Under the pieces are notes generated by a model, which had not been told where the DNA came from, did not search any database, and worked only from the letters and a program-made list of their open reading frames with translations. From an uncultured Planctomycetales bacterium (lineage in GTDB: Bacteria; Planctomycetota; Phycisphaerae; UBA1845; Fen-1342): a stretch of DNA of 64,000 nucleotides. The position numbers and the translations under genes were made by a program. This document shows positions 4,767-58,478 of this stretch, one piece after another. The stretch is taken from contig CAZWYT010000004.1 of the NCBI GenBank assembly GCA_964638325.1, forward strand, positions 29,308 through 93,307. The letters run 5' to 3'. Each line of letters begins with the position of its first letter. Position 1 is the stretch's first letter.

Positions 4767-7046
4767 CTACCCGCCGCCGCTGAGCAGGGCGACAAACGGG
4801 TTGATATCGCCGAACGAGCCTTGCCCGTACGTGCCGTCGCCGTTGATGTCGCCGTTCTGGGGCGGACAGCCGGGATATGCGGCCTGCCAGGCGGGAGCGT
4901 CGGAAAGAAGCAGCACGAACGGATTGATGTCGCCAAAGTCCACCGTGCCGTCGCAGTTCATATCGCCGGTGAGCGTGACGTAGAACGTCGCGACCGCGCT
5001 GCCGCCGGGCAGACCGTCGCCGCTGGGCAGCGGATCGGGGCTGTCGGGCTTGACCAGTTCGCCGTCGAGCGGCAGGCCCCCGCTGTCCACGATCGACTCG
5101 TGAACGGTGAGGGTGTACGTATCGGTGCCGAGCGCCGCCTGGGGCGTGAGGTCGGCGGCGTGGCGGACACTGTCATACGAGAACGCAAACGGCACGGCGC
5201 CGCCGCGCTGTCCGACCAGCTCAAAGTCGCCGGCGTCCGCTACAACGCCCTTGTGAAAGACGACCTCCAGGGCGGCCGGCTGCTGCGGAAGCGGCACCAC
5301 CGCGCGCGGGGCCGGGTTCATCGTGACGATTTTCGGCGGGCCCTGGACAAAGCTCACCGGGCTGGCGGCGGTCGAAAGGATCCAGGGCTTGGGGTCAAGA
5401 TTGATGCTCGTCACGGTGGGGCCTTCGACCTGGAAGAGCAGGTTCTCGATGCGGGCATCGTTCCACACGGTGTGCGTATGCGCACCCTGGGCATCGTTGG
5501 TCACGATGTCGATCGGCATCGTGAAAACCGGGTACGAAACGGATTGCGTCTGCTTAACGTACAGCTCGACATAGCGCACCCCATCGATGAGATACTGGGT
5601 CCAGCCGTACTGGTATGCGGGTGCGCCCCCGGCGTAGACCCACTCGTCGAAGAACCATTGCAGGTCGCGACCGGAGACGGTCTCGGCGACCTGCCGCAAC
5701 TGATCGGTCGTAGCGGAATTGCCCTGGTAGGCAGCGCGGTAGGCGGCAAGGGTGTCGAAGAACTCCGTGTCGCCCAGGACATGCCGGAACATGTGCAGCA
5801 CCCAGCCACCCTTCAGGTAGGAGAGGTTGTAGTCGAAGATACGGTTTACGTCGCTGATGTCATAGCAGTACACCGTGCCGCTGACATCCCAGGGCCGTCG
5901 GGACGCCATCGCGGCGTGCAGGGCGGCCTCGCTGCCGCCGGGCTCGTACTGGTACCAAAGGGCTTCGCAGTACGTGGCGAAGCCCTCGTTAAGCCAGATG
6001 TCCATCCAGGTCGCGCAGGTGACGTTGTCGCCCCACCACTGGTGGGACAGTTCGTGGACGATTCCATCTTCCCAATCGAAGTAGCCGCCAATGCTCGTGA
6101 GCGTCTGGTGCTCCATGCCGCCGCCCCAGCCGAACTCGAGCATGCCGTACTTCTCCTGGACAAACGGGTAGAGGCCAAACAAGTCGCTGAAGGTCGTCAG
6201 GGGGCCGGCGATGCTCAGCCAGAATTGCCGGTTCTGGGTGGAGTCGTCCTCGGGGTAGATGAAGAATTTCAGCGGCATTACGTGGCCCTGGTAGGTCCAA
6301 AGCGCGCCGAACTGGTGGAAGTTCGTGGCCCCAATAGAGTACAGATAGTCGTCGGTCTGATACGTTGTTTTCCAGCGGTAGCGCAGCTTGCCCACGCCGA
6401 TGTTGTCGGTCCCTTGCAGCGCCCCATTGGAGCCTACGACCATGGTGTTGGGTACCGTGAACCACAGGTCCGCGGTGGTCTTGTCCTCGAGATCATCCTT
6501 GGCCGGCCACCAGGTGTAGGCGAACCACGGCTCGCTCAGGGTGTACACCTCCCGTGCCCCATTGCGGATACGGAACGTGATCCCGCCCAATCCGCCGCTC
6601 TGCGGCTGGCCGTTGTAGGCCACGTACAACTCGAACTGCTCGCCGGTGTTGTAAGGACGGTCGAGTGTGACCTGCACGGCGGGATAATCTACGCGGACCC
6701 AGTCGACCGGCGCTCCACCGACCTGCACGTCGGTGATGGTGAAGGTCGTGTCCAGGCGGAAGTGGAAGAGCGTCAGGTTATCGACCAGGCTCTGCACGGT
6801 CATCGTGTTCGACCCGCCGATCCAGGCCGTGACCGGGTTGATCTCGATGTCGAGCTGGTAGTGCAGCACGTCGGTGTCGGTGCTGAAGTCGTCCACGGGC
6901 GGTCCCGCATCACGGCCCTGGGCGCGCAGGATCGCCGCCACTTGGGCCTTGGCACGTGCGCAGCCCCTCGGTTGGACGGGGAGTTGCTGGGCCACGAGAA
7001 CGACCGGTGCTGCGGCCAGGACAATCAGAACCAGCAGGTTACGCAT
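4767..7046 (-). CDS. secreted M1-family zinc aminopeptidase (aminopeptidase N-like) with C-terminal tandem dockerin-like repeat
   Basis: Signal peptide MRNLLVLIVLAAAPVVLVAQ. HELSHQWWGDNVTCATWMDIWLNEGFATY is the HEXXH-(18)-E gluzincin motif of M1 peptidases. C-terminus DMNCDGTVDFGDINPFVLLLS...DINGDGT...FGDINPFVALLSGGG*. Confidence 0.8.
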   Translation of the reverse strand: MRNLLVLIVLAAAPVVLVAQQLPVQPRGCARAKAQVAAILRAQGRDAGPPVDDFSTDTDVLHYQLDIEINPVTAWIGGSNTMTVQSLVDNLTLFHFRLDTTFTITDVQVGGAPVDWVRVDYPAVQVTLDRPYNTGEQFELYVAYNGQPQSGGLGGITFRIRNGAREVYTLSEPWFAYTWWPAKDDLEDKTTADLWFTVPNTMVVGSNGALQGTDNIGVGKLRYRWKTTYQTDDYLYSIGATNFHQFGALWTYQGHVMPLKFFIYPEDDSTQNRQFWLSIAGPLTTFSDLFGLYPFVQEKYGMLEFGWGGGMEHQTLTSIGGYFDWEDGIVHELSHQWWGDNVTCATWMDIWLNEGFATYCEALWYQYEPGGSEAALHAAMASRRPWDVSGTVYCYDISDVNRIFDYNLSYLKGGWVLHMFRHVLGDTEFFDTLAAYRAAYQGNSATTDQLRQVAETVSGRDLQWFFDEWVYAGGAPAYQYGWTQYLIDGVRYVELYVKQTQSVSYPVFTMPIDIVTNDAQGAHTHTVWNDARIENLLFQVEGPTVTSINLDPKPWILSTAASPVSFVQGPPKIVTMNPAPRAVVPLPQQPAALEVVFHKGVVADAGDFELVGQRGGAVPFAFSYDSVRHAADLTPQAALGTDTYTLTVHESIVDSGGLPLDGELVKPDSPDPLPSGDGLPGGSAVATFYVTLTGDMNCDGTVDFGDINPFVLLLSDAPAWQAAYPGCPPQNGDINGDGTYGQGSFGDINPFVALLSGGG

Positions 7047-7382: not shown

Positions 7383-10300
7383 GTGCGCTCACCAGGAGCA
7401 TGTGTGATGGGACACGGGTTCAGGTCCGCCCTGTTGGTCGGTGCGCTGCTCGCCGCCGGCGTCGCGCGCGGCGACCGCCTCATTGTGGCGACCACGGGGA
7501 ATGAGGATTTTGCCGGCATTCAGGGATTCTGCGATTGCCTGGCTGGGCCGGATGTGTCGGTCTCGCCCACCTGCCAAGATCGCTATGACCAGGACGTCGA
7601 TGGGGACGTCGACCTGATCGACCTGGCCCTATGGCAAGCCGGGTACGCCGGCATGGACGTGGTGGAGGCGCAGCTCGCCGGCAACGCGCTCACCGTGTAC
7701 CCGTTCTTCGAGTATGTCACGGCGTTCAACGTTAACGCGCCCGTCAAGGTGGGGCTGGATCCGACGCGGTACCCGGAGCTGGTGGGCGTGACGGCCGATC
7801 TGTACGTGGTCGCGGACAAGACCGAGGAGCAGTGGAACGCGGATCCGACGTTGACCGACGTGCGTGTCGACGGGCCGCAGGTCGTGACGTTCGGCGGCAC
7901 GACGATTCAGCAGAACACGTTCCAGGTCGCGGAGGCCAACGAGCTTGACGCGGACGCCGGCACCGGGCTCGGCGTCGGCTATGACGTCGTGATCGACGCG
8001 AACCGCAATGCCTTGTTGGACGACGGCGACTACATCGACGGCTATCGCCAAGTCGCGGGCTTCTACGTGGTGGCGGACACGGTCGCGCTGGGACCGCTCG
8101 TAACGACCGCGATCCAGTACAGCGGCGGCTCCTGGCTGGGCCAGAGGACGTGGTATCCCACCGACATTGCCGCGCTGGGGCAGTTGCCGCTGGTCGTCAT
8201 CAGCCACGGCAACGGCCACAATTACACCTGGTACGACTACCTGCAGCAGCATCTGGCCTCGTATGGCTACATCGTGATGAGCCATGAGAACAATACGGGA
8301 CCGGGGATCGAGACGGCCTCGACGACGACCCTGACCAACACCGACTACTTCCTCGGTCACCTGGCCACGATCGGCAACGGGGTATTCAACGGCCACGTCG
8401 ACGTGCACAAGATCATGTGGATCGGCCACAGCCGCGGGGGGGAGGGGGTCGTCCGCGCCTACGACCGCCTCTACGACGGTTACACGCCGGCGAATTACAC
8501 GCTGGATGACGTGATCCTCGTCAGCAGCATCGCGCCAACAGACTTCCTCGGCCCGGAGCAGAGCAACCCGCACCAGGTGGACTATCACCTGATCTATGGG
8601 GCGGCGGACGGGGACGTGGGCGGCTACCCGGACAACGACATTGCCGACTCGTTCAACGTCTACGAGCGGGCCCAGGGTTTTCGCCAGTCCACGTACGTGC
8701 ACGGGGCCGATCACAACGACTTCAATTGCTGCGGCGACGATGACTTTAGCGGCCCGCCGGGCACGGCCATCGGCCGGCCGGAGGCGCAGCGCGTCGCGAA
8801 GGCCGTGTACCTCGCGCTGGTGAAGCACTACGTCGAGGGCAACGTGCCGGCGAAGGATTTCCTGTGGCGGCAATACGAGGACCTCCGGCCGATCGGTGTC
8901 GCGGCCATGGATACCGTTGACCTGGAGTACAAGGAAGGCACGGGCAGCTTCTTCGTCGACGATTTTCAGACGCAGAGCGCGCTGGGGATCAGCAGTTCGG
9001 GCGGGGCGGTCATGTACAGCGTGCAGAACCCGTACGAAGGGTTGATGAACGACACGGACGGGAGTTTTGCCTGGTCCGCGTCGGATCCGATGAACGGCAT
9101 GACCCGCGCGCGCACCAACGACACGACCAAAGGGCTCGTATTCGACTGGACGTTCCTCGGCGCGCGGTTTCTGGAGTTTGAGGTCGTGCCGGCGGCGCGC
9201 GACGTGTCCAGCTACGAGTACCTCTCGTTCCGCGCCTGCCAGCAGACGCGCCACCCCGAGACGACCAGCGAGCTCGGAGACCTGACGTTCACGGTGAGCC
9301 TACGGGATGCGGACGGCACCTTAAGCTCGATCAACATCGGCGCCTACGGCGGCGGCCTCGAGGAGCCGTATCAGCGGACCGGGTATGGGACCGGGGCCGG
9401 CTGGCAGAATGAGTTCGAGACGATCCGCGTCCGGCTCGGCGATTTCCTACGGAATGGTGCGGCACTGGATTTGACGAACATCGTCGCGGTGCGGTTTAGC
9501 TTCGGGGGCGGGGCCGGCTCATCGCGCGGGCGAATCGGGTTTGACGATCTGCAATTCAGCAAGGATCCGAATCCGGGCGGGCTGACCATCCGACCGATCA
9601 GCGTTCCAGACCATATCCCGCCAGGCCAACCGACGCCTGTCCAAGTCAAGATCCGCGGACGAAGCGAGACCTATGTGCCGGACACGGGCCGGCTCCATTT
9701 CCGCTACGACGACGGCGCGTACAACACCGTGCCGCTGGTACCGGTCGGGCAGGACGTGTACGCCGCGATTCTGCCGGCGCCCGCGTGTAGTGACCAGCCG
9801 CAGTTCTACTTCACTGCCGAAGGCAGCGAGAGCGGACTGATCGCGGACCCGCCGGCTGCCCCGGCGAGCGTGTACCTGGTTGCCGTGGGCGAGTGGGTGA
9901 GCTTCTTCGAGCAGTTGATGAACGCCGACCCCGGCTGGGCCATCTCGGGCGGATTGTGGGCCTTCGGACAGCCGACGGGCGGCGGCGGGCAGCACGGCGG
10001 CCCCGACCCGACCAGCGGCTGCACCGGCCCCAGCGTGTACGGATACAACCTGAACGGCGACTACGAGCCGAACATGCCGGAACGCCATCTGACGACGCCC
10101 GCCATCGATTGCACAGGTCTCACGGGCGTGCGGCTGTCCTTCTGGCGGTGGCTCGGCGTCGAGCAACCGGCGTATGACCACGCGCGGCTGCGGATCAGCA
10201 CGGACGGCAGCACGTGGACGATGGTCTGGGAGAATGGAAGCGAGGTCGCGGACACGGCCTGGACGTTCCAGGCGTTCGATATCTCAAGCATTGCCGACGA

Positions 10301-10415
10301 CCAGCCCACCGTCTACGTGCGCTGGACCATGGGAACGACCGACGAATCCTGGGAATACTGTGGCTGGAACATCGATGACGTACATCTGTCGATGTTTGAG
10401 TGCAACGAAGACTAA
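7383..10415 (+). CDS. secreted alpha/beta-hydrolase (lipase/PAF-acetylhydrolase-like) with N-terminal CLAGP/acidic-repeat module and C-terminal MAM/lectin-like domain
   Basis: Signal peptide. GHSRGGEG nucleophile elbow (GxSxG) preceded by HGNGHNYTWY. N-terminus CDCLAGPDVSVSPTC...DVDGDVDLIDLALWQAGYAG. C-terminal ~170 aa rich in W/G (TDGSTWTMVWENG...) resembles MAM-type domains. Alternative start at 7407. Confidence 0.6.
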   Translation: MRSPGACVMGHGFRSALLVGALLAAGVARGDRLIVATTGNEDFAGIQGFCDCLAGPDVSVSPTCQDRYDQDVDGDVDLIDLALWQAGYAGMDVVEAQLAGNALTVYPFFEYVTAFNVNAPVKVGLDPTRYPELVGVTADLYVVADKTEEQWNADPTLTDVRVDGPQVVTFGGTTIQQNTFQVAEANELDADAGTGLGVGYDVVIDANRNALLDDGDYIDGYRQVAGFYVVADTVALGPLVTTAIQYSGGSWLGQRTWYPTDIAALGQLPLVVISHGNGHNYTWYDYLQQHLASYGYIVMSHENNTGPGIETASTTTLTNTDYFLGHLATIGNGVFNGHVDVHKIMWIGHSRGGEGVVRAYDRLYDGYTPANYTLDDVILVSSIAPTDFLGPEQSNPHQVDYHLIYGAADGDVGGYPDNDIADSFNVYERAQGFRQSTYVHGADHNDFNCCGDDDFSGPPGTAIGRPEAQRVAKAVYLALVKHYVEGNVPAKDFLWRQYEDLRPIGVAAMDTVDLEYKEGTGSFFVDDFQTQSALGISSSGGAVMYSVQNPYEGLMNDTDGSFAWSASDPMNGMTRARTNDTTKGLVFDWTFLGARFLEFEVVPAARDVSSYEYLSFRACQQTRHPETTSELGDLTFTVSLRDADGTLSSINIGAYGGGLEEPYQRTGYGTGAGWQNEFETIRVRLGDFLRNGAALDLTNIVAVRFSFGGGAGSSRGRIGFDDLQFSKDPNPGGLTIRPISVPDHIPPGQPTPVQVKIRGRSETYVPDTGRLHFRYDDGAYNTVPLVPVGQDVYAAILPAPACSDQPQFYFTAEGSESGLIADPPAAPASVYLVAVGEWVSFFEQLMNADPGWAISGGLWAFGQPTGGGGQHGGPDPTSGCTGPSVYGYNLNGDYEPNMPERHLTTPAIDCTGLTGVRLSFWRWLGVEQPAYDHARLRISTDGSTWTMVWENGSEVADTAWTFQAFDISSIADDQPTVYVRWTMGTTDESWEYCGWNIDDVHLSMFECNED

Positions 10416-10443
10416 CCCTCTACGCGTGAAAGGTCGGCACGAT

Positions 10444-11067
10444 ATGAGAAACACGATCCTGACAGCCTTGACGCCCCTGTGCTTGATGACCAGTACGTTG
10501 CTGGCCGAACCGCCGCCGATGCCGCCGACGCCCGCATCCATCCAGGACATCGTGTACGCACGGCCGTTCGCGCTCGAGAAGGGCTACGAGTACGCCTGGC
10601 GCAAGGAGCGGCCTACGGTCACCGAGGGCTACATCCTGGTGCTCAGGGTAGACCCGGCGCTCGTGTACCCGCGGCAGACGGCGGAGCCAGTGCTGTATGT
10701 CGGCGACACGACCGCCCAGCACGTGAACGTCGGCTACGCCTCCGGGCATCTGGTGGTCATTGTGCCCGGCAACCTCGCGGACTTCGACCTGAAGAAGACG
10801 CTGATTTGGTTCGGAACGCCGGAGCTGCCGGAACGCTGCACGGCGAAGATCATCGCGGAGGAGCGTGAGAAGGCGGTAAAGGCCGGGCTCCGGCCGCCGG
10901 CGGAGGCCAAGATCGACGCCGCCCGCGCCAAGGGCGGCGAGCGCTTGAGCGTGAAGGACGAAAACGAGCTGCTGCGGCAAGTCGCGCCGCTCATCAAGCA
11001 GTACGCGCCGGACGAGACCGAGCGGGCGGACAACCTGCTCACGCCGCGGGTGGAGGAGAAGAAGTAG
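10444..11067 (+). CDS. hypothetical secreted protein
   Basis: ATG at 10444 gives signal-peptide-like N-terminus MRNTILTALTPLCLMTSTLLA. Lys/Glu-rich C-terminus. Normal codon and amino-acid composition. Confidence 0.45.
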   Translation: MRNTILTALTPLCLMTSTLLAEPPPMPPTPASIQDIVYARPFALEKGYEYAWRKERPTVTEGYILVLRVDPALVYPRQTAEPVLYVGDTTAQHVNVGYASGHLVVIVPGNLADFDLKKTLIWFGTPELPERCTAKIIAEEREKAVKAGLRPPAEAKIDAARAKGGERLSVKDENELLRQVAPLIKQYAPDETERADNLLTPRVEEKK

Positions 11068-15457: not shown

Positions 15458-15777
15458 GATACCCCAATTGTAACCGCCGCATGGACTGGCCAGTAGAACC
15501 CGGCCCGCGCGTGCTGGCGCGCCGCGGTCTCACCCGGACGGAAGGGTTCTGAGCGGCGCTCAGCCCTTTCGAACCGCTGGGAGGATGTTGATCCGCGCGG
15601 CGCGGGCGCCGGACGGCGCGGGCCCCGGCCACGCCGACCAGAGTCGTCACTCCTGGGGCCGAGGCCACGATTCCCGGTGCGAGGGAGTCCCTTGTTCCCT
15701 GTTTACGGACCGCCCCTTCCTGGTGTCCATGCCGCTCGGCCCGCACTCGGCGTCCATCACTCACCCTTCCCGCAGGA

Positions 15778-16959: not shown

Positions 16960-17030
16960 CCGCGGCTCTCAGCTTTCACCTTTCGCGACGCCCGGCCGTC
17001 CTCGTCCGCACGTGGACGCGCGACCGCTTT

Positions 17031-18200: not shown

Positions 18201-18223
18201 ACGTGGACTCCGCTTGCGGCGCC

Positions 18224-19487: not shown

Positions 19488-19553
19488 TAGCCGCGAGCCA
19501 CATATAATCGACTAGTCCGCCCGCGGGCCGCTGGGCGAGTTACGGAGAATAGC

Positions 19554-44837: not shown

Positions 44838-45682
44838 GTACTGCGTTCCACCGATCTAGCTGCTTCTTCCTCTGTAGCTCACGAATGCGCTCGTTGGCGC
44901 CGGCTACCCGCCGGCTCCGGCACCGTGACGGCTCCGCGTCCGCGGCAGCGTTCCTCATTCGCCCCACTGTGTCAGCACCGATACCGCGGTCGCGGTCTAA
45001 CCCGAATCACCTCAGTGCTCGGGAACCCCCGCCATCCACGCCTGGGTGGCGCTGCTTTCTGCAACCGGCCCGACGAGTTGGTGTTATTATAGCGGTTCGT
45101 GTTTCGTGAATCAAGGTCATTCGGCGCGCAAACGTAGTCGCGGAGGAGTGTTAGCGGGCACGTGGCACCCCCGTCCGGACCCCGGCGAGCGTGAATAAGG
45201 TGCCGGGCTCTTGCTTCGGGTCGTGACGCACAGGCGTCGTTCAGGTTGCGGGTCGAAGATGCGGGGTGCGGGGAGGCCTTGCTGGGGGCCGGCGATCTGA
45301 ACGCGGATCAGGCGTCTCCCGGCCGCTTGTCGTATCCGGACACCCCCCGACGGTGTGGGATCCGGGCAGGTTTTTGGAAGTGGTGACGCTTGAATGCGTG
45401 CTGGAGTGCCGACCGTCGCGCGGTCTCGTTTGGAAGCCGCCGCGCGTTGTGTTATCCTATGGGCATCTTGTTCGCAAGATGGGCAAGCGCTGGGACGTGG
45501 GGCATGGCCGACGCATGTGACGGTCGGGTCCGACCTGCTCAGCGAAGGACACGAACTGGTTTGGCCGGGCCGGCGGAGGCTGGTTACGGCCGATGGTTGC
45601 GCGGGTGAGCCCTGGGGCAGCCGCGCGGGCCCAGCGCGGGCAAGCCTCGGAGGCACCTGTGCACTGGAGAGCAGAGGGCAAC

Positions 45683-48437: not shown

Positions 48438-50225
48438 TCATCCGCCACCGCTCAGCAGCGCGACGAACGGGTTGATGTCGCCGAACGACACGGTGCCGTC
48501 GCCGTTGATGTCGGCGTTCAGGATCTCGCAGTCGGGAAACGCCGCCAAGTAGCCGGCCGGACTGCTGAGCGCGAGCACGAACGGGTTGATGTCCCCGAAA
48601 TCGATCGTCCCATCACAGTTCAAGTCGCCGGGCGGGCTCCACGTGAACGTGTCAATCTGCGCCAGGCTGTTGGTCGCGTCGTAGCCGGCGTTCAGAATGT
48701 ACGTCATGGAGTGGTCCAGGTAGGTGCGGAACGCGCTGTTCGGATCGTCGGGGTCGGCGCTGGGGTAGGGCCACGGCGGTGAGTAGCCGTTCGCCAGGAA
48801 CGCGGGGATGAGAATGTTCTTCACCGCCCAGATGTCGGTGGCGACGGGGTCCAGGCTCGCGATCAGCTCGTCCCGCCGGGTGGCGCCGGCATACGTCGTC
48901 CACGGGCCGTCGTACGGATTGGCGTTGATCCAGACGCAATCGAGGATGTTGAGGTTGGCCGGGCGGATCTCGCCCAGCAGCGCGCCGAGAATGCCGCGCG
49001 CGATGGCGCTATGGGAATTCGTGTTCAGCTCCCCGGTGACGACGCCCATGTAATGCTTCACGCAGGCCGTCGCGCCGTACGACGCATGGTGCGATTTCAG
49101 CACCGGCACGTTGATGAACTTGAGGTGCTCCAGGTCATACGTTCCGCGCAGCGGGCTCCACAGGCCGTATTTCAAGCTGATGTAGGTGCCGTAGCTGGTC
49201 CGGAACTTCGGGTACGAGATCCGGCCCTGGAGCTGCGGGTCGTACGGGTAGACGACGTAGCCGTTCTGCAGATTCCCCGCGGAGTACTCGGTGACACTGG
49301 TGGTGCGGATGCTCGTCCAGTCGAAGTGCGTGACGGGGTAGCCCTGCGACTGGAACCCTATGACCACGTCGTGCGGCGAGAGCGAGTGGTCCTGCGCGTT
49401 GTTGGCGGCCCGGTCGAAGTTCTCGACCGAGTTGAACTGGGCGTTCTCGCACACGACGACCTGCCCGGTGAAGGTGTCGGGATGATCGACGATACAACGG
49501 ATCAGGCCGCGCAGGAGGTCCGTGTTCGTGCCGCCGCGCTCGGGCCACTGATAGTTGATCTTGACGACCACCACGTCGTCGGCGGCGATGATTCCGTCGG
49601 GGCCCGCCAGTAGCGACTCATCAGGCGAGCGATAGAACTTCAGCCCGTTGCGGCCCATGAGCTTGAGGAGATCATCCAGGCCCACAAAGCGGTCGCCGAC
49701 CGGGTTCTGGGGGCAGTCCGTCACGTGGTAGAGCTGGGCGCGGTAGTCGCGCGGGGCGGCCCGCATGGGCAGGGGGGCCGCGCTGGCCCGGGTCAGATAG
49801 CCCCACGTGCCGAGCGTAGCAAAGAGCCCGAGTGCGGCGATGGCAACACCGACCGGCGTGCGCAGCACGGCCAGCGTCCGGCGCCAGGCCGCGATCACGG
49901 CGGCCACAAGCAGCCCGCCGAACGCCAGGGACGCGGTCGAAACGGCGGCCTGCTGACATGGGTAGGTGAGCCGGCTGGGTTTGGTGCCACTGCGGAGCAG
50001 CAGCCAGGCGAGCGCGAAAATCCCGCTGAGCAGCAGGTTGATGCGCAGCCAGCGCTGCAGGAAGCCCGCCGGCGGCTGGTGATGGGAATGCTGCCCTCGG
50101 TCAAGGCGGACGCTGTGCGGGCGCGGGTGGAAGTTCATGATCGCTCGTCTCCCCGTGGGTCGAATGACTCCACCAGTACACGGGCCCTCCGCGGTCGGGG
50201 TATTCCGGTTAAACCTACCGGCCAT
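48438..50225 (-). CDS. membrane-anchored DUF362-like protein with C-terminal tandem dockerin-like repeat
   Basis: N-terminal TM helices, central region resembling DUF362 (VVVKINYQWPERGGTNTDLL...VVVCENAQF...ILDCVWINANP...LDPVATDIWAVKNIL), C-terminus DLNCDGTIDFGDINPFVLALSSPAGYLAAFPDCEILNADINGDGTVSFGDINPFVALLSGGG*. Alternative start 50138. Confidence 0.55.
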   Translation of the reverse strand: MAGRFNRNTPTAEGPCTGGVIRPTGRRAIMNFHPRPHSVRLDRGQHSHHQPPAGFLQRWLRINLLLSGIFALAWLLLRSGTKPSRLTYPCQQAAVSTASLAFGGLLVAAVIAAWRRTLAVLRTPVGVAIAALGLFATLGTWGYLTRASAAPLPMRAAPRDYRAQLYHVTDCPQNPVGDRFVGLDDLLKLMGRNGLKFYRSPDESLLAGPDGIIAADDVVVVKINYQWPERGGTNTDLLRGLIRCIVDHPDTFTGQVVVCENAQFNSVENFDRAANNAQDHSLSPHDVVIGFQSQGYPVTHFDWTSIRTTSVTEYSAGNLQNGYVVYPYDPQLQGRISYPKFRTSYGTYISLKYGLWSPLRGTYDLEHLKFINVPVLKSHHASYGATACVKHYMGVVTGELNTNSHSAIARGILGALLGEIRPANLNILDCVWINANPYDGPWTTYAGATRRDELIASLDPVATDIWAVKNILIPAFLANGYSPPWPYPSADPDDPNSAFRTYLDHSMTYILNAGYDATNSLAQIDTFTWSPPGDLNCDGTIDFGDINPFVLALSSPAGYLAAFPDCEILNADINGDGTVSFGDINPFVALLSGGG

Positions 50226-50335: not shown

Positions 50336-51655
50336 TTACCCGCCGGTCAGCAGCGCCACAAACGGGTTGATGTCGCCGAAGTTCAACGTGCCGTCTTCAT
50401 TGATATCGCCGTCCATGATGTCGCAGTCTGGGAACGTGGCCTCATATGCGCTCGGGTTGGACAACGCCAGCACGAACGGGTTGATGTCGGCGAAGTTGAC
50501 GGCGCCGTCGCAGTTCAGGTCGCCGTAGGCCGGCGTCAGGCGGCAGGCGCGCCACTGGCCGTTGAGCACGCCGCAGCCGGCGATCTGGCCGCGATCGTTG
50601 ATGTCCAACGCCTGCGTAAGGTACCAGCCTGCGCCGCCGACGAGCGCGTCGTTCAGGACCGTCATGACGCCCCGGCGCCAGACGAACGCCAGCGCGGTAG
50701 AGTCATCAAACTGCAACGTCCATGGCGGGTTGTACATGTAGCCGCAGCCGACCACGGTTTCGCTGTTGTTGAGCCGGTAGGCCCGGCTGTAGGGTTTCCC
50801 GGGCGGGGTACCGAGATCGATGGCCTGGTTCCCGTCGTGGAAAAAGGCCCGGCTGCAACCCTCTCCCCCTGGGGGAGTCCAGACCCCGACGTATTGGTTG
50901 AAATCATTGATATCGGCAGTCCCGGTCGGATCGCCGAGACCCTCCAGTTGCCGTACGTCGTCGGGGTAGTTGGGGTCGTTGGGGTCCCAGCCCCATGCGC
51001 ACGCCACCGACACGGGAATTTCGAGTGAACACCCGACGATGACGCCCGACTGATTGATGCCATAGGCGTGCGCTTCGGGCCACGGCGGCAGTGGGTCAAG
51101 CAGCCGTAACGTCCATTGGCCGTTGAGCTTGTCCCACCGAGGGGCTTGCCCATCGTAGTTGCCAGTGCGCCGGCACGCCGCCCCCACGATGATCCCGTCG
51201 TCGTTGACGGCCAAGGCGCCGCTGGTGTCGCGGTCTGCCGGGGGCGGCAATTGTTCCAGGTGCGGCTGCGGATCGCGCTCCCAGACGAACGGCACCCACC
51301 GCCATCCGCCGCTGTAGATCTTCGCCTCGCCCACGATCTTCGTGCCATCGTTCGACGCGCCGTGGGGCCATGCGTCATACCAGCCGGCGAGTGTGCCGAG
51401 GTCCTCGGCCACACCGTTGGGATCCATAGGATCCCAGCGCGTCGCGTGCCCCACATAGTTGCTGTTGTCCGACGTGCCGGCCACCACACCGGCGGTGTCG
51501 ATCGTGCTGCCGAAGCTGCGTGGGTACGGCGACAGCGGCGGCAGCTCCTCGATCCAGTAGCGTTGCGCCAGGGCCGGTGCGACGGCGGCCAGGGCGACGA
51601 GCGCAGCGATCGCCAACCGACCGATACTCAATGAGTTGTGATTCGTGGGGTTCAT
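50336..51655 (-). CDS. secreted HAF-repeat protein with C-terminal tandem dockerin-like repeat
   Basis: Signal peptide (IGRLAIAALVALAAVAPALAQ). At least 6 HAF-type repeats (AHAYGINQSGVIVGCS, AYRLNNSETVVGCG, ALDINDRGQIAGCG, ALAVNDDGIIVGAA ...). C-terminus DLNCDGAVNFADINPFVLALSNPSAYEATFPDCDIMDGDINEDGTLNFGDINPFVALLTGG*. ORF 50336..52708 is a read-through artefact. Confidence 0.6.
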   Translation of the reverse strand: MNPTNHNSLSIGRLAIAALVALAAVAPALAQRYWIEELPPLSPYPRSFGSTIDTAGVVAGTSDNSNYVGHATRWDPMDPNGVAEDLGTLAGWYDAWPHGASNDGTKIVGEAKIYSGGWRWVPFVWERDPQPHLEQLPPPADRDTSGALAVNDDGIIVGAACRRTGNYDGQAPRWDKLNGQWTLRLLDPLPPWPEAHAYGINQSGVIVGCSLEIPVSVACAWGWDPNDPNYPDDVRQLEGLGDPTGTADINDFNQYVGVWTPPGGEGCSRAFFHDGNQAIDLGTPPGKPYSRAYRLNNSETVVGCGYMYNPPWTLQFDDSTALAFVWRRGVMTVLNDALVGGAGWYLTQALDINDRGQIAGCGVLNGQWRACRLTPAYGDLNCDGAVNFADINPFVLALSNPSAYEATFPDCDIMDGDINEDGTLNFGDINPFVALLTGG

Positions 51656-51802: not shown

Positions 51803-52390
51803 ATGGCGACGACCGAACCGAAGCACGTCACCTCGCTGCTGAACGCTGCACGGACGGGAGACGGCGCAGCGGCAGGGGAGCTGTTGCCGCTGATCTATGG
51901 TGAGTTGCGTCGCTTGGCGGCCAGGCAGATGGGCAGGCTGCCCGGCGGGGGCCGGGACGACACGCTCCAGCCCACGGCGCTTGTGCACGAGGCCTACCTG
52001 CGGCTGGTCGGCGGCGACGACGTTCCCTGGCCCGATCGCAGACAGTTCCACGCCGCCGCCGCCGTGACGATGCGCGAGATCCTCGTCGAACGGGCGCGGC
52101 GGAAGTATCGCGCCAAACACGGCGGAGGGCGCAAGCCCGTCGGATTGGGGGCCGTGGCCGAGGTGGTGGACAAGACCCAGCGCGCGCCGATCGACATCCT
52201 GGCCCTGGACGAGGCCCTGACACACCTGGCAGCGCGGCATCCGCGCTGCGTTGAGATTGTCATGTTGCGATACTTCGCCGGTCTGTCGGCCGAGGATACG
52301 GCGCGGGCGCTGGAGCTTTCGCGCGCGACCGTCCAGCGCGAGTGGACGCTGGCCAAAGTCACGCTTTTTGAGGAACTGAGGGGGGACTAG
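51803..52390 (+). CDS. ECF-type RNA polymerase sigma factor (kinase-associated TIGR02999-like subgroup)
   Basis: Region 2 (LVHEAYLRL), region 4 HTH (EIVMLRYFAGLSAEDTARALELSRATVQREW). N-terminal AARTGDGAAAGELLPLIYGELRRLAARQM typical of the sigma subgroup that pairs with Ser/Thr kinases. Followed 77 bp later by a kinase. Confidence 0.8.
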   Translation: MATTEPKHVTSLLNAARTGDGAAAGELLPLIYGELRRLAARQMGRLPGGGRDDTLQPTALVHEAYLRLVGGDDVPWPDRRQFHAAAAVTMREILVERARRKYRAKHGGGRKPVGLGAVAEVVDKTQRAPIDILALDEALTHLAARHPRCVEIVMLRYFAGLSAEDTARALELSRATVQREWTLAKVTLFEELRGD

Positions 52391-52466
52391 GACACGCGCA
52401 GCGCGACGGTGCGCCATGCTTGCAGCGCTCGCCCGGCCCTGCCGAAGGTCCTCCGGAGGGCAGAGC

Positions 52467-55400
52467 ATGGCTGAGATCGATCCGGAGCGCTGGGTGCAGG
52501 TGTACCTGGCCGCGCTGGAGCAGGAACCGGCGGCCCGCGCCGCGCTGCTCGACCGCGAGTGCGCCGGCGACGCGGCCCTGCGGGCGCGCGTCGAGCGCTT
52601 GCTGGCGCGCGGCGCGGAGCTCGAACAGTTCCTGGAAAAACCCGCGACCCTGGCCGCGCCCGAACCCGATGGCGCTGACGCGGCCAGCGCCGATCGCCTC
52701 GTGGGCACCCGCGTGGGCCGCTACCGCGTGCGGCGCGTGATCGGCGTGGGCGGCATGGGCGTGGTCTACGAGGCCGAGCAACACTCACCGCACCGGACCG
52801 TCGCGCTCAAGCTGCTGCGGCCCGGCTGGGTGTCCCAGTCGCTGCTGCGGCGCTTCGAGCACGAGGAAGAGGTGCTCGGCCGCCTGCACCATCCGGGCAT
52901 CGCGCAGATCTACGAGGCCGGAATCCACCGGTTGGAAACCGGTGCCACAGTTCCCTTCTTCGCGATGGAACTGGTCCACGGCCGGCCACTGACGGAGTAC
53001 GCCGAACAGGCCAGGCTGGGTACGCGGCAACGGCTGGAGCTGTTCGCGCGCATCTGCGACGCGGTGCAGCACGCCCACCAGCACGGCGTCATTCACCGCG
53101 ACCTCAAGCCGGGGAATATCCTCGTGGAGGAGGAAGGGATCGAGGGAGCAAGGGATCAAGGCAGCGAGGTCCACCCGGGCCGAATCGAACGTCATCCCGA
53201 TCGATTCCCCGAGCCATTGATTCGCAGCTCTCTTTCGGTGCAGCCGAAGATTCTCGACTTCGGAGTCGCCCGTGTCACCGACGGCGACATTGCCCTGACG
53301 ACCATGCGGACCGACGTCGGCCAGCTCATCGGCACGATCGCTTACATGAGCCCCGAACAGGCTCGCGGCAACAGCCGGGAACTGGACACGCGCTCGGATG
53401 TCTACGCCCTGGGCGTCATCCTGTACGAGCTGCTTACCGGCCGGCTGCCGCACGATGTGACGCACAAGCCGATTCCGGAGGCCGTGCGGGTCATCACCCA
53501 GGACGATCCAACGCCGATCAGCTCCGTCGTCGATGCGGCCGGACGGCCACTCCGCCACCTTCGTGGCGACATCGAGACGATCGTGGCGCGGGCACTGGAG
53601 AAGGACAAAGGCCGACGCTATGCATCCACGGCGGAGTTGGCCGCCGACATCCGCCGCTACCTGGCGGATGAGCCGATTGTCGCTCGTCCGACCAGCACGT
53701 TCTACCAGTTGCGCAAGTTCGCCCGCCGCAATCGGGGACTGGTGGGCGGGGTGGTCGCGGCGTTTGTCGTGCTGGTGGCGGGGCTGACGGGTTCGCTCAT
53801 CTCCTGGCGAAACGCGGTCTACGAGCGAAACCGCGCCCAGAGGGCCGAGCAGGTAGCGCGGGAGGCTCAAGCTGTTGCGGTCGCGGAGCGCGAGGAAGCC
53901 CAACGGCAGCGGGATAGAGCACGAGAGACAGGCAAGGGAGGACGCATTGAAGTTCTGCGGCGTCTTTACGGTGGTCTGCCGGGGCCCCAGGTTGAGCCCG
54001 CCTGGTTCATCGCCAGTGCGGACCTGGACGCCGAGGGGGACGCGGACCTGGTGGTGGCGAACACCTACAGCGATCGAGTATCCGTGCTGCTCAACCGAGG
54101 CAGCGGATCTTTCGCGGCCCCCGTCGCCTACGCGGTTGGGGACGAACCTCTGTCCGTCGCGATCGGGGATCTTGATGGCAATGGGTACGCCGATCTGGCC
54201 GTGGCGAACGCGAACGATGACAACGTCTCGGTCCTGCTGAACCACGGGGACGGCACGTTCGCCACCCAGTGCACGTACACGGCGGGCTACTATTCTTGCT
54301 CGGTTGCGATCGGCGATGTGAACCGGGACGAGCACGCGGACCTGGTGCTGGCAAACGCCAACACCAGCAACGTATCGATCCTGCTGAACCGTGGTGACGG
54401 CACATTTGCGGATCAGGTGACGTGCCTTGCAGGCGCGGCGCCCTGCTACGTCGCGCTCGCGGACCTGGACGGCGACGGGGATCTTGATTTGGCCGTGGCG
54501 AACGAAAGCGGGAACGATGTGTCGATCCTGCTCAACCACGGAGATGGGACCTTCGCGGCGCACGTGACGTACCCCGTCGGACAAGGGCCACGGTCGATCG
54601 CGCTCCACGATCTGAACGGCGATGGGCATCCCGACATGGTCACGGCCAATCCGAGCAGCAACACCGTCTCCATCCTGCTCAACCGCGGCAACGGTGCGTT
54701 CGCGGGTCAAGTGGTCCACGCGGTTGGCGATCGACCCAGGTCTGTCGCGCTGGGGGACCTGGACGGCGACGGGGATGCCGACCTGACCGTGGTACACTGG
54801 ATGAGCGACGACGCCTGGATCTTTTTGAACCGCGGGGACGGCGGGTTTGGGCCCGCGGTTTCCTATTACGCCGGCGACGGGCCCTGGTCGCTCGCGCTCG
54901 CCGACCTCGACGGCGACGGGCACATCGACCTCGCCGTGGCGAACACGCTGGGAGACAAGGCCATCCTCCTGAACCGGGGGGACGGCCGGTTTGCGGCGCC
55001 GATTACGCACGCCGTCGGGGATGAGCCCGGCGCTGTCGCGATCGCGGACCTCGATGGCGACGGAAACGCGGACTTGGTGGCGGTGAACGGGCACAGCGAT
55101 GACGTATCCGTCCTGCTAAGCCGGGGGGGCGGCTCATTCGCGCCGCAGGTAAGGTACGCGGTCGGCGACTCGCCGCGCTCCGTCGTGATTGGTGATCTGG
55201 ATGGCAACGGCAGTCCCGATCTGGCCGCGACACACCACTTCGACCGCGACGTCTCGATCCTGCTGAACCGCGGCGACGGCACGTTCGCCGGCCAAGCCGC
55301 CTGCCACATCGGTGCGGGCAGTGCCGCCGCGGCGGGTGACCTGGACGGCGATGGGCATGTTGACCTGGCCGTGACCAGCAGCGACGACGTCAAGGTACTG

Positions 55401-56018
55401 CTGAACCGCGGTAACGGCACCTTTGCTGCCCCGGTTCGCTACAGCACCGGGGAGGGTGCCGGGTCCGTGGCGATCCAGGACCTCAATGGCGACGGACACG
55501 CGGACCTGGCCATGGCGCTCGATGGCGATGGCAGCGTATCGGTGTTCATGAACCAGGGCGACGGCACGTTCGTGCTGCAGGGAGTGTACCCCGTCGGCTA
55601 CGGGGCATACGCGGTCGCTGCGGGGGACCTGGACGGCGACGGAGCTGCCGACCTGACCGTGGCCATGCGTTGGGACGACCGCATTCTGATCTTCCTGAAC
55701 AACGGCGACGGCACGTTCGCGGCGCCCACCGCCCACGCGGTTGGGCGCGGACCCGTATCGGTGGCGATCGGTGATCTGGATGCTGATGGACACGCCGACA
55801 TTGCCGTAGCAAACCCGGGCAGCGAAAACGTCTCCATTCTGCTGAGCCACGGGGACGGCACGTTCGCGACGCAATCCGCGTTGTCGGCCGGGGGCAGCCC
55901 TTGGTCGGTCGCCATCGGCGATCTGGATCGAGACGGGATCCCAGACCTGGCCCTCGCGATTAGCGGCAGCAACACTATCTCGGTCTTGCTGAGTTCGGCG
56001 CGCCCCACAGCACGTTAA
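52467..56018 (+). CDS. Ser/Thr protein kinase with TM segment and C-terminal FG-GAP/VCBS-type beta-propeller repeats
   Basis: GVGGMGVVYEA (Gly-rich loop), VALK, HRDLKPGNILV, DFGVAR, AYMSPEQ, TM helix (LVGGVVAAFVVLVAGL), then ~28 tandem repeats of DLDGDG.ADL.VAN....VS.LLN.GDGTFA. Confidence 0.8.
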   Translation: MAEIDPERWVQVYLAALEQEPAARAALLDRECAGDAALRARVERLLARGAELEQFLEKPATLAAPEPDGADAASADRLVGTRVGRYRVRRVIGVGGMGVVYEAEQHSPHRTVALKLLRPGWVSQSLLRRFEHEEEVLGRLHHPGIAQIYEAGIHRLETGATVPFFAMELVHGRPLTEYAEQARLGTRQRLELFARICDAVQHAHQHGVIHRDLKPGNILVEEEGIEGARDQGSEVHPGRIERHPDRFPEPLIRSSLSVQPKILDFGVARVTDGDIALTTMRTDVGQLIGTIAYMSPEQARGNSRELDTRSDVYALGVILYELLTGRLPHDVTHKPIPEAVRVITQDDPTPISSVVDAAGRPLRHLRGDIETIVARALEKDKGRRYASTAELAADIRRYLADEPIVARPTSTFYQLRKFARRNRGLVGGVVAAFVVLVAGLTGSLISWRNAVYERNRAQRAEQVAREAQAVAVAEREEAQRQRDRARETGKGGRIEVLRRLYGGLPGPQVEPAWFIASADLDAEGDADLVVANTYSDRVSVLLNRGSGSFAAPVAYAVGDEPLSVAIGDLDGNGYADLAVANANDDNVSVLLNHGDGTFATQCTYTAGYYSCSVAIGDVNRDEHADLVLANANTSNVSILLNRGDGTFADQVTCLAGAAPCYVALADLDGDGDLDLAVANESGNDVSILLNHGDGTFAAHVTYPVGQGPRSIALHDLNGDGHPDMVTANPSSNTVSILLNRGNGAFAGQVVHAVGDRPRSVALGDLDGDGDADLTVVHWMSDDAWIFLNRGDGGFGPAVSYYAGDGPWSLALADLDGDGHIDLAVANTLGDKAILLNRGDGRFAAPITHAVGDEPGAVAIADLDGDGNADLVAVNGHSDDVSVLLSRGGGSFAPQVRYAVGDSPRSVVIGDLDGNGSPDLAATHHFDRDVSILLNRGDGTFAGQAACHIGAGSAAAAGDLDGDGHVDLAVTSSDDVKVLLNRGNGTFAAPVRYSTGEGAGSVAIQDLNGDGHADLAMALDGDGSVSVFMNQGDGTFVLQGVYPVGYGAYAVAAGDLDGDGAADLTVAMRWDDRILIFLNNGDGTFAAPTAHAVGRGPVSVAIGDLDADGHADIAVANPGSENVSILLSHGDGTFATQSALSAGGSPWSVAIGDLDRDGIPDLALAISGSNTISVLLSSARPTAR

Positions 56019-56294: not shown

Positions 56295-58478
56295 TCATCC
56301 GCCCGTCAGCAGCGCGACGAAGGGGTTGATGTCGCCGAAATTCACGCCGCCGTCGGCGTTGATGTCGGCGTTTAGGATGTCGCAATCCGGGAACGTGCTC
56401 GCGTATGCGGTCGGGTCGGCCAGCGCCAGCACAAACGGGTTGATGTCGCCGAAGTCGACCGCGCCGTCGCAGTTCAGGTCGCCGGGGAGCGCGACGATTT
56501 CGACGTGCGTCACGCGCAGCGCAGAATAGTCCCCCAGGCCGTGCTCGGGGTTCGCCCCGCGTACGCAGTAATAGTAGTCGCCCGCGATTCGTCCCGTGAT
56601 ATCGAACGAGGTCTCCGTGATGTCGCTGCCCAGCGTGACGATGTTCGCCCACGAGGCGACCGGGTGGATGTCATCCACGTAGAACCCCTGACCCACCGTG
56701 CTCGCGTCGCTCGTGTACCGGAACCGCAGGTAAATCGACTGGCCCGTGTACGGCGCCAGCGAGTGCGTCCTCTGCACCCAGGTGCCGCTCTGGCCCGTAA
56801 ACGCAGCGAGCAGGTCGTACTCGCGGCCGTCCGTGGACACCTCCACGAACGCCATGTCCCGCCGAAGCTGCAAGTCGTACCACACCCAGAAGCTGAGCGA
56901 GTCGCCCGCCACGACCGGCAGCGGAGCCGCGGTGGTCATGGCCGCGATCTGTCCATTGCCCGTCGGCGATGCGAAGCTGTGCGTGCCCGAGTGATAGCGG
57001 GCCGTCGTGATGGTCATGCCCTGCATGACCCACGCAGCGCTGCCCGATTCGGCCCCATCGGTCGACGCCGTCAACCCCGTCAGCTCCTGGAGCGCATAGT
57101 GGTCCGCCCCGGCGTCCGGATTCTGCTGCTGCCAGGAGACCGTGTAGTTGCCGTCAGCGTCGACCGCCGGCGTGGTCAGGAGCGGCGGCAAAACGTAGGG
57201 CGTCGTCTGACTGAGCACATTCGGCGCCTGCTGCAAGACGTACAGGGCGCCGAGCCAGTTCGCGTCCAGAATAGGCTGCAACTGGGACTCGGTCGGATGA
57301 AAGCTGTTCCCCATCTCGATCGTATAGGGCAGGGTGTTTTGCCCAAACTCATAGTAGCCGTACCCGTACACCCAGTCGATTGTCTCGCCGACGGTCGCAT
57401 AGTCGAGCGCCGACTGCATGGGCGTGTAGGTGCCGGTCCCGCCGTGCGTGATCTCTGTGGCCAGGCTCTGGCCGACGGAAACCAGTAGGGCATTGTCCGG
57501 CGTGGTTGCGGCGCTGTAGCCCCACGGCCAGAGCACGAGTCGGCCGTACGTGTGGTACGTGAGCGCGATCGCGACCCTGTTGACCTCAAAGAGGCCCTGG
57601 ATCGCCTGCGTCTCCAGCTCGGAAAACGGCGCCAGACCGCAGTAGGCTTCCTGCGCGGGATCATGCGTAGTCAAGCCGGCCCCAACTGAGCCCCAGGCCC
57701 CGCCCTTGTCGCCGTTGACCGAGCCGTCGTAATTGCGGTTCAAGTCAACGCCGACCGTGCCGAACTGGGGGAAGACGTGCCGGTTCTTGCGCCAGTCGTG
57801 CCCCTGATCATGGCAGTAAACATAGCCGTCCGGATTCATGCACGGGATGACCCAGATGCGGCGGTTATCGACCAGGTCGGCAATCGACGGGTCCGAGCCG
57901 TAGTTCGAAGTCAGCCGCGTGGCGATTTCCAGCCCCATCTCGACGCTGGGCCACTCGCGGGCGTGGTGCAACCCTAGGAACGCGACGCTGGGCTCACCCT
58001 CGTCCACCCCGGGGTTATCCGAGATCTCCAGGCACCAGATGTTGCGGCCCTCGTACGACTGGCCAAGCGAGGTGAGCTGCGTCATCGCCGGATAGCTCGC
58101 CGCCATCGTGCCGAGGATGCTCTCGACCTGCGGAAACGTGTGGTAGACGGCCCGCACTTCGCTGGCAGCCTGCTCCACGTCCTCGAGCACGACCTCAAAC
58201 GGGATGCCCGCCGCCACCAACTGCCGCCGCTCGTGGCCGGTCACCACCAGGTCGAGCGAGCGACCGGCGTCGACCGTGCCGGCCACGTCCCAGCTCGGCA
58301 GCGTCTGCTGGAGTCTGGTGCGTATGTCGGCATCGCTGACCCGCACGCGGACCAGACTCTTGGCCCCCTCCGCTACAGCCCTGTCAACGCCGTCGTCGAC
58401 AAACGACCCCGTCGTCGCCGCACTGGCAAGCCAGCCGCCAGCGGCGACTACGAAAACGAGACACAGTCGTGCGATCAT
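56295..58478 (-). CDS. secreted M14-family zinc carboxypeptidase with C-terminal tandem dockerin-like repeat
   Basis: Signal peptide MIARLCLVFVVAAGGWLASAA. Zn ligand motif LGLHHAREWPS (HxxE), NPDGYVY, RNYD. C-terminus PGDLNCDGAVDFGDINPFVLALADPTAYASTFPDCDILNADINADGGVNFGDINPFVALLTGG*. Confidence 0.75.
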   Translation of the reverse strand: MIARLCLVFVVAAGGWLASAATTGSFVDDGVDRAVAEGAKSLVRVRVSDADIRTRLQQTLPSWDVAGTVDAGRSLDLVVTGHERRQLVAAGIPFEVVLEDVEQAASEVRAVYHTFPQVESILGTMAASYPAMTQLTSLGQSYEGRNIWCLEISDNPGVDEGEPSVAFLGLHHAREWPSVEMGLEIATRLTSNYGSDPSIADLVDNRRIWVIPCMNPDGYVYCHDQGHDWRKNRHVFPQFGTVGVDLNRNYDGSVNGDKGGAWGSVGAGLTTHDPAQEAYCGLAPFSELETQAIQGLFEVNRVAIALTYHTYGRLVLWPWGYSAATTPDNALLVSVGQSLATEITHGGTGTYTPMQSALDYATVGETIDWVYGYGYYEFGQNTLPYTIEMGNSFHPTESQLQPILDANWLGALYVLQQAPNVLSQTTPYVLPPLLTTPAVDADGNYTVSWQQQNPDAGADHYALQELTGLTASTDGAESGSAAWVMQGMTITTARYHSGTHSFASPTGNGQIAAMTTAAPLPVVAGDSLSFWVWYDLQLRRDMAFVEVSTDGREYDLLAAFTGQSGTWVQRTHSLAPYTGQSIYLRFRYTSDASTVGQGFYVDDIHPVASWANIVTLGSDITETSFDITGRIAGDYYYCVRGANPEHGLGDYSALRVTHVEIVALPGDLNCDGAVDFGDINPFVLALADPTAYASTFPDCDILNADINADGGVNFGDINPFVALLTGG

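Follow-up and report, generated by a model that had tools for sequence, protein, structure and literature searches.

Why do four proteins with different N-terminal domains end in the same short sequence? The question is raised by a 64,000-nucleotide stretch of DNA from an uncultured Planctomycetales bacterium (GenBank assembly GCA_964638325.1, contig CAZWYT010000004.1, positions 29,308 to 93,307; hereafter the window, with a G+C content of 67%), in which an M1-family aminopeptidase, a DUF362-domain protein, a HAF-repeat protein and an M14 carboxypeptidase carry one common C-terminal module. Sequence comparison and structure prediction indicate that the module is most likely a divergent dockerin of about 65 residues, composed of three helices and two duplicated segments.

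A C-terminal module common to four proteins

The four open reading frames (ORFs) were confirmed, all on the minus strand (Table 1). In Pfam and NCBIfam scans the parts that precede the module contained differing domains, namely Peptidase_M1 with Big_5, DUF362, HAF repeats (TIGR02913 HAF_rpt, 39.2 bits with a cut-off of 22.65), and Peptidase_M14 with an InhA-like MAM/choice-of-anchor J domain (NF038128 choice_anch_J, 34.7 bits with a cut-off of 30). Three of the four products are present in the public protein collection with identical starts, on one 142,056 bp NCBI contig. The 595-residue reading of the DUF362 carrier is absent from the collection as an exact product, so its annotated start probably differs. 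Signal-peptide-like N-termini are found in three carriers (that of the M1 protein, read directly, is MRNLLVLIVLAAAPVVLVAQQ). The N-terminus of the DUF362 carrier (49800–50225, minus strand) has three hydrophobic segments in place of a signal peptide that could be cleaved; although probably integral to the membrane, this carrier still ends in a dockerin-like module.

The module is 64–68 residues long in the four carriers, with a pairwise identity of 64–72% and 35 invariant columns. Its consensus is GD(L/M)NCDGx(V/I)(D/N)F(G/A)DINPFVL(A/L)L...(Y/W)...(F/Y)P(D/G)C...DIN(G/E/A)DG...FGDINPFVALL(S/T)GG(G), and the stop codon follows directly. When the six-frame translation of the window was searched with the family profile, exactly four matches were obtained (E 1e-33 to 1e-35) and no further copy was found even at E ≤ 10; the eight DINPF motifs of the window all lie inside the four tails. 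At the DNA level the modules differ from one another at many synonymous sites (mean column identity 82%), and the likeness is therefore maintained on the protein by selection and is not caused by recent gene conversion. The ORFs, the domains and the profile thus bear out the preliminary description of this DNA, which had reported four minus-strand proteins with unrelated N-terminal domains and one common tail.

Each module consists of two tandem 22-residue segments that are identical to each other at 12–15 of the 22 positions. A segment comprises a loop, D-x-N-x-D-G-x-(V/I/L)-(D/N/S)-F-G-D, which is followed by I-N-P-F-V-x-x-L. The EF-hand loop pattern is matched by loop 1 in all four modules and by loop 2 in two. 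The module of the M1 protein has a three-residue insertion in its second loop (DINGDGTYGQGSFGD) and a W/PGCPP variant of the linker.

Relationship to dockerins

The only recurrent Pfam match of the module was Dockerin_1 (PF00404). It scored 11.0–15.3 bits in three full-length carriers, with no match on the full-length M1 protein, and 16.5–19.1 bits on the isolated modules, all under the Pfam gathering threshold of 22.9 bits. The NCBIfam model NF041540 ('GC-type dockerin') gave 17.1–19.8 bits for three modules (cut-off 29) and no match on the M1 module, and EF-hand models gave 11.6–20.3 bits, all under their cut-offs. The upper ends of the Dockerin_1 and EF-hand ranges come from the DUF362 module (19.1 bits with Dockerin_1 and 20.3 bits with EF-hand_1). 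In a comparison of a profile of the four modules with the sequences of the Protein Data Bank (PDB), dockerins were both the best and the most frequent matches, the top one being 5m2o_B, a group I dockerin of R. flavefaciens (E 6e-4).

A structure prediction of the module had been proposed in the preliminary description, and it returned a dockerin fold. Two AlphaFold2 models were calculated from a family alignment of 122–124 sequences, one for the canonical module of the DUF362 type (predicted local distance difference test, pLDDT, 91.7) and one for the expanded-loop module of the M1 type (pLDDT 91.9). In a Foldseek search of the PDB with the DUF362-type model the first 27 matches were all dockerins, with TM-scores (normalised to target length) of 0.14–0.77 overall and of 0.55–0.77 for single-domain dockerin chains, and both high-confidence models matched only dockerins; calmodulin-type EF-hand structures reached a probability of at most 0.04 and a TM-score of about 0.25. 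In both models a helix follows each loop; in the DUF362-type model no helix precedes loop 1. The linker of 17–18 residues contains a second short helix. Dockerins are recognised by a tandem pair of segments, each some 22 residues long, in which a 12-residue Ca-binding loop (D/N at 1, 3, 5, 9 and 12) leads into a helix. The module has such a pair, with a deviating second loop in the M1 protein (three-residue insertion) and in the M14 protein (glycine at position 7), and the predicted models have the dockerin fold in three dimensions. Of the earlier suggestion that the loop spacing fits a type I dockerin or EF-hand-like loops, the dockerin-like part is upheld by the PDB sequence matches, the Dockerin_1 matches and the two models. 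The type I label is not, because no curated dockerin model reaches its cut-off and because a dockerin type is defined by its cohesin partner, so that no type can be assigned to the module.

Four other identities were considered and rejected, three of which (PEP-CTERM, GlyGly-CTERM and T9SS-like) had already been set aside in the preliminary description. A PEP-CTERM signal is incompatible with a stop codon directly after ALL(S/T)GG(G), with neither a PEP motif nor a transmembrane (TM) helix nor a basic tail, and no match to PF07589 was found. For a GlyGly-CTERM/rhombosortase substrate, the GG(G) would have to be followed by further residues, but it is the end of the protein, and modules of other lineages end in TNP, TGP or SGS. 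No Por_Secre_tail or TIGR04183-type match to the C-terminal domain of the type IX secretion system (T9SS) was obtained with Pfam or NCBIfam, and the module is predicted to be helical and not a beta-sandwich. A canonical EF-hand pair (PF13499 and relatives) was rejected on its sub-cut-off scores, the missing entering helix before loop 1 and the poor Foldseek matches.

Family size and conservation

A profile search over 1.84 billion representatives of 50%-identity clusters retrieved 10,945 clusters at E ≤ 1e-3, of which 5,385 remained at E ≤ 1e-10. Among the 120 closest homologues, only four have a precomputed Pfam dockerin match (PF00404), and NCBI names the carriers after their catalytic domain or as hypothetical. 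Some members with several modules cross the Dockerin_1 cut-off (P0139, 53.3 bits; P0145, 32.3 bits; P0170, 28.1 bits; P0158, 25.0 bits), and the family therefore grades into Dockerin_1. The cut-off of NF041540 is passed only by P0159 (33.6 against 29 bits), a short-linker variant that ends in ...GGATCP.

In an alignment of 124 sequences, the positions conserved at 90% or more are the ligand positions 1, 3, 5 and 12, G6, F10, the I-N-P-F-V start of the helix, L20 and two cysteines, one at position 4 of loop 1 and the other within the linker motif P-x-C. Of 311 modules, 304 have both cysteines and three have neither; the pair probably forms a disulfide, which would fit an exported protein. Canonical and expanded second loops both occur in the family.

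In 85 of the 117 best representatives the protein ends 2–4 residues past the last helix. In a few members the module is repeated two to four times in tandem or is located N-terminally or internally. Apart from its signal peptide, the 222-residue P0121 is made up entirely of three modules in tandem, and two RHS-repeat proteins (P0228 and one encoded at 2–631, minus strand, of locus L067) have an N-terminal module. The exact GG(G) ending that the preliminary description had emphasised is accurate for the four window proteins but does not hold for the family: ...LL(S/T/A)GG(G) is found in one metagenome-assembled genome (MAG), ...RLLT(N/G/S)P in others and ...G(x)CP in a sub-branch, and one M1 orthologue ends in a ten-residue tail (...ALLAGQQRPGSVPS). 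Since the ending varies in this way, the stop after GG is a habit of a lineage and not a defining feature of the family.

Distribution and cargo

When one genome per species was scanned with two narrow peptide patterns, 361 confirmed stretches were obtained, and the best 80 of these all lie in six MAGs of Phycisphaerae/Planctomycetota. The closest module among the species representatives scanned is 83% identical. Genome-wide enrichment, for which the preliminary description had suggested a profile search, is strong in these related genomes: the lower bounds from the sampled flanks alone are 52 distinct carriers in Phycisphaerales 7-NCT_044, 31 in SRP278314_co1_339 and 26 in MAG134.

Carriers are often arranged in tandem in related genomes. 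In the close relative JGI 3300036766, the module ends each of four genes in a row (HAF-like, TPR, M1 and M14), and the gene order of this locus (L078, 284–12187) is esterase, 207-residue protein, HAF, TPR, M1, M14. The window contains, at 7383–11067 on the plus strand, a PETase/chlorophyllase-like esterase of 1010 residues and the adjoining secreted protein of 207 residues (10444–11067), which is without any Pfam match. The orthologues of both precede the carriers in the close relative, so synteny is conserved.

Among 75 carriers, the cargo domains found most often are Peptidase_S8 (9), M14 (5), PAD_porph (4), FG-GAP (3), trypsin-like (3), and C25, M28, M10 and alpha-amylase (2 each). A module is also joined to an M12B reprolysin (P0145). 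The cargo is thus mostly proteolytic.

Comparison with known systems

The type I dockerins of clostridial and ruminococcal cellulosomes (PF00404; 6kg9, 2ccl, 2vn5, 5m2o) are likewise about 60–70 residues long and usually C-terminal, and each of their two duplicated segments pairs a 12-residue EF-hand-type loop with a helix. The strong internal symmetry of the module is found in dual-binding-mode type I dockerins as well, and GDxNCDGxVD and (A/S)NPS.Y are common to it and the R. flavefaciens group I dockerin. In contrast to type I dockerins, the helices of the module open with an invariant I-N-P-F-V that includes a proline, and the recognition positions are F-G and V-(L/A), where classical dockerins have S-T and K/R-R. 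Further differences are the long linker of 17–18 residues with its extra short helix, the conserved cysteine pair and some expanded second loops. The hosts also differ, as they are diderm Planctomycetota, and the cargo consists mainly of peptidases and not of glycoside hydrolases.

Modules of NF041540 are also C-terminal, and the window modules align to positions about 12–65 of the 67 in that model. However, members that pass or approach its cut-off have a shorter linker, a ...G(x)CP end and an extra terminal cysteine that the window modules lack. Judged on their sub-cut-off scores, longer linker and missing terminal cysteine, the window modules form a sister subfamily that NF041540 does not capture.

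Dockerin-tagged peptidases are already known in Planctomycetes. A 'planctosome' was proposed by Andrei et al. 2019 (PMC6461901) for the Nemodlikiaceae (Phycisphaerae), in which dockerin-tagged zinc peptidases, including an M14 carboxypeptidase and an M12B reprolysin, would be assembled on cohesins for polypeptide degradation, a model built on two large scaffold proteins in which both kinds of domain, cohesin and dockerin, can be detected; the planctosome is a hypothesis and has rarely been cited, its name occurring in only six papers. Our family occurs in the same bacterial class and likewise includes M14 (in the window), M12B joined to the module (P0145) and lamin-tail-domain (LTD) proteins near carriers. 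It differs in that no cohesin was found in the sequences scanned, that the module escapes the standard models, and in its scale of at least 26–52 carriers per MAG. The phycisphaeral isolate Limihaloglobus sulfuriphilus has a Coh2-Doc1-Coh1 protein and 13 dockerin fusions (PMC11557425), and dockerin expansions by gene duplication have been described in Planctomycetes (PMC5264255). For Ca. Stygibacter, an uncultured diderm lineage of the Cloacimonadota, a cellulosome-like complex was proposed with a scaffoldin of 3,755 residues that contains tandem cohesins and with signal-peptide-bearing enzymes that end in dockerins, including S8 and C25 (gingipain-like) peptidases (PMC8542988). The types of cargo are alike, but the phylum is another one, and a scaffoldin was found there and none in the sequences scanned here. 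The module is therefore a variation on dockerins and not a new principle. What is new is a distinct and very large subfamily outside the curated models, recognised by its I-N-P-F-V helices, cysteine pair, long linker bearing an additional short helix, and variants with an expanded loop, together with its scale per genome and its predominantly proteolytic cargo.

The C-terminal slot

Orthologues of the M14-MAM protein with 70% identity or more keep the same module. More distant planctomycetal orthologues have other dockerin variants (...PPECPF; D-x-N-x-D-G-x-V-N-x-x-D-L-L-x-V-L-x-x-W-G; one with a PF00404 match), and those of Thermoplasmatota/Euryarchaeota (P0306–P0394, about 50% identical to the product of window positions 56490–58478) have PKD domains and hydrophobic or TM-like tails. 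These comparisons suggest that the M14-MAM catalytic cassette has been transferred between domains of life and its C-terminal anchor exchanged. Choice-of-anchor J domains and HAF repeats characteristically occur in proteins that have a C-terminal domain for sorting or anchoring. The exchanged tails, together with the presence of choice-of-anchor J and HAF domains, indicate that the module is an interchangeable C-terminal localisation module. As functional analogues only, PEP-CTERM/exosortase signals and T9SS C-terminal domains occupy the same extreme C-terminal slot on many carriers per genome, likewise on secreted hydrolases, HAF-repeat and choice-of-anchor proteins; the predicted alpha-helical Ca-loop fold of the module distinguishes it from the beta-sandwich of the T9SS domain.

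The module had been suggested to serve as a tag in place of PEP-CTERM in this lineage. This suggestion is contradicted by the flanks of carriers in related MAGs, which contain 14 PEP-CTERM-type tails within 10 kb of carriers; since proteins of both kinds coexist in these genomes, one does not replace the other. Eight of the 12 tails that had not already been seen as LTD proteins were scanned, and all match Pfam PEP-CTERM, although only one of them reaches the cut-off. A recurrent family of about 210–240 residues, present in four of 76 loci, combines a signal peptide, a lamin tail domain (PF00932) and PEP-CTERM. Such LTD and PEP-CTERM proteins are possible surface-anchored partners of the module.

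Proposed function and alternatives

We consider it reasonably probable that the module tethers mostly protein-degrading enzymes to a surface receptor or an extracellular scaffold. Carriers would leave the cytoplasm through an N-terminal signal peptide (Sec), except for one that would be held in the membrane by helices at its N-terminus. Once outside, the module would bind two Ca2+ ions and then fold, probably with a disulfide between the cysteine of loop 1 and that of the linker stapling the fold. The near-invariant, symmetric helix faces (F10, G11, N14, V17) would then dock the cargo non-covalently on one conserved receptor on the cell surface or an extracellular scaffold, so that a proteolytic battery would be held at the cell in a cellulosome-like or planctosome-like manner. 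Of these steps, Ca2+ binding, disulfide formation and docking are inferred, as is the nature of the receptor, whether it resembles a cohesin or not. In classical dockerins, positions 10, 11, 14, 17 and 18 contact the cohesin. The same positions are almost invariant in the module and identical in both repeats, as would be expected if one conserved partner were bound through a symmetric, dual-mode interface.

Several observations weigh against a tethering dockerin. All four modules remain below the cut-offs of both curated dockerin models. With the insertion in loop 2 of the M1-type module and a glycine at position 7 in loop 2 of the M14 module, repeat 2 may not have the canonical Ca2+ geometry. 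As the DUF362 carrier is probably membrane-anchored already, tethering cannot be the sole role of the module there. Many genomes reportedly encode dockerin-like modules without a cohesin. A Pfam scan of the window proteins found neither a cohesin (PF00963) nor another candidate receptor, and neither was found in 102 related proteins, comprising 75 carriers (among the 25 commonest families of their scan), nine large neighbours, eight PEP-CTERM neighbours and ten proteins with internal modules. A CipA-type cohesin profile gave zero matches in 1.37 Mb of six-frame translation from the window and 76 loci, a fraction of any genome; its query, a CipA sequence, was confirmed as a cohesin (1aoh, 296 bits), and only ten near-identical homologues were retrieved for it. 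As this profile is narrow and whole genomes lay outside the search, the result is a weak negative and not evidence of absence. Clustering of 830 flanking genes from carrier loci likewise gave no recurrent uncharacterised neighbour; the families that recur are histidine kinases, ABC ATPases, HlyD, response regulators and the small LTD and PEP-CTERM family.

The missing cohesin, in any sequence scanned, would also be expected if the module had no dedicated protein receptor and were a Ca2+-dependent appendage that stabilises the protein or binds substrate or surface, such as polysaccharide, particles or the envelope glycans of the cell itself, so that enzymes stay folded and close to their substrate. 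The Ca-binding loops are the most conserved feature of the module, and dockerin-like modules are said to be far more widespread than cohesins. We nevertheless regard such an appendage as unlikely. The cohesin-contact positions of the helices are near-invariant over thousands of clusters and in both repeats, which points to one macromolecular partner, and a pure stabiliser has no need of the anchor slot of choice-of-anchor and HAF proteins. Moreover, cohesins have been reported in Phycisphaerae (PMC6461901, PMC11557425).

A different view of the same slot is that the module is a sorting signal, read and then removed or modified by an export machinery of the T9SS or PEP-CTERM/exosortase kind after transport across the outer membrane. 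The extreme C-terminal position in the large majority of the family, the dozens of carriers per genome and the exchange with other sorting domains in orthologues would all agree with this, and the cargo of C25 gingipain-like, PAD_porph, M14 and S8 domains resembles that of the T9SS of Bacteroidota. Yet the predicted compact, helical Ca-loop dockerin is a known protein-binding module and no known secretion signal, N-terminal, internal and tandem copies fit a binding module and not a terminal signal, and no sortase-like neighbour gene recurs across the 76 loci. The residues before the initial GD are variable, with no conserved cleavage motif ahead of the module, and nothing was found in favour of the dedicated processing or secretion recognition signal that the preliminary description had raised. 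A sorting signal is thus improbable. Finally, the proximity of three of the four carriers (HAF, DUF362 and M14, within 10 kb of one another) and the frequent tandem carriers of related genomes could point to recent paralogous duplication, or to a recombination or assembly artefact, with functionless tails. This explanation is refuted by the size of the family, with thousands of clusters in many samples, by the synonymous divergence of DNA that encodes a conserved protein, and by the retention of the module in orthologues from other genomes; the confident fold prediction also speaks against it, and we give it practically no credence.

In a more far-reaching version of the tethering reading, the module would serve as the address tag in a system for surface display that extends through the whole lineage, in Phycisphaerae and other Planctomycetota, and that keeps dozens of secreted peptidases and other hydrolases on the cell; its conserved receptor would not be a recognisable cohesin. 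An envelope glycan or a beta-sandwich protein anchored by PEP-CTERM might, for instance, take that part, which would make the system a proteolytic planctosome with a new class of receptor. We hold this version to be doubtful.

Neighbouring genes

A secreted protein of 549 residues without a Pfam match is encoded at 45593–47242 on the plus strand of the window. Its signal peptide is followed by a degenerate EF-hand/dockerin-like pair (DFNRDGDGHRGTLQELAACLAGP ... FDRDDDLDVDLTDAAAFQMDYTG) and then by a Cys-rich motif, GACCFDDLSCQMLTETDCQAAGG; similar GACC..C..C motifs are found in the module-bearing P0125, L016 and L045. Between the HAF and M14 carriers, the plus strand (51803–56018) encodes an extracytoplasmic function (ECF) sigma factor and a Ser/Thr kinase of 1200 residues with 13 FG-GAP repeats, and a kinase-WD40 protein (59339–62857, minus strand) follows after this stretch. 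An ECF sigma factor and kinase pair also lies directly upstream of carriers in locus L077 (4793–7642), and kinases are located near carriers in other loci. These pairs may reflect a regulatory link to the carriers or merely their commonness in Planctomycetes. At 14222–29107 the window contains a MacB-type exporter cluster with a HlyD adaptor, at least three FtsX/MacB_PCD permeases, an ABC ATPase, an OEP/TolC-like protein and YceI. The HlyD and ABC ATPase families recur near carriers in 6–9 loci, which is probably due to the abundance of these families.

Table 1. Module-bearing genes of the window with their domains, and PEP-CTERM loci near carriers in related genomes (window positions unless a locus is given)
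Feature	Position	Strand	Remarks
M1-family aminopeptidase gene	4767..7046	-	759 aa; signal-peptide-like N-terminus, Peptidase_M1, Big_5, C-terminal module
Peptidase_M1 domain, M1 protein	about 5640-6065	-	
Big_5 Ig-like domain, M1 protein	about 5067-5342	-	
Dockerin-fold module (predicted), M1 protein	4767..4973	-	68 aa + stop
DUF362-domain protein gene	48438..50225	-	595 aa as read, start uncertain; DUF362, C-terminal module
DUF362 domain	about 48822-49121	-	
Dockerin-fold module (predicted), DUF362 protein	48438..48635	-	65 aa + stop; both loops canonical 12-residue
HAF-repeat protein gene	50336..51655	-	439 aa; signal-peptide-like N-terminus, HAF repeats, C-terminal module
Dockerin-fold module (predicted), HAF protein	50336..50530	-	64 aa + stop; NF041540 17.1 bits, cut-off 29
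M14 carboxypeptidase gene	56295..58478	-	727 aa; signal-peptide-like N-terminus, M14, MAM, C-terminal module
Peptidase_M14 domain	about 57252-58124	-	
InhA-like MAM / choice-of-anchor J domain, M14 protein	about 56664-57041	-	
Dockerin-fold module (predicted), M14 protein	56295..56489	-	64 aa + stop
LTD+PEP-CTERM / PEP-CTERM loci	L001 6270-6899, L029 5720-6364, L035 7770-8486, L071 7997-8674, ten further		

Implications

Planctomycetota are important degraders of particulate organic matter, Phycisphaerae especially, and the module may bear on how their secreted enzymes are kept at the cell. It marks a large, searchable set of secreted enzymes, dozens per genome and mostly peptidases, and with a profile of its own the tagged part of the secretome could be delimited in these uncultured bacteria. 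The conserved helix faces offer a concrete bait for the receptor, which makes both the planctosome idea and non-cellulosomal dockerin binding experimentally addressable.

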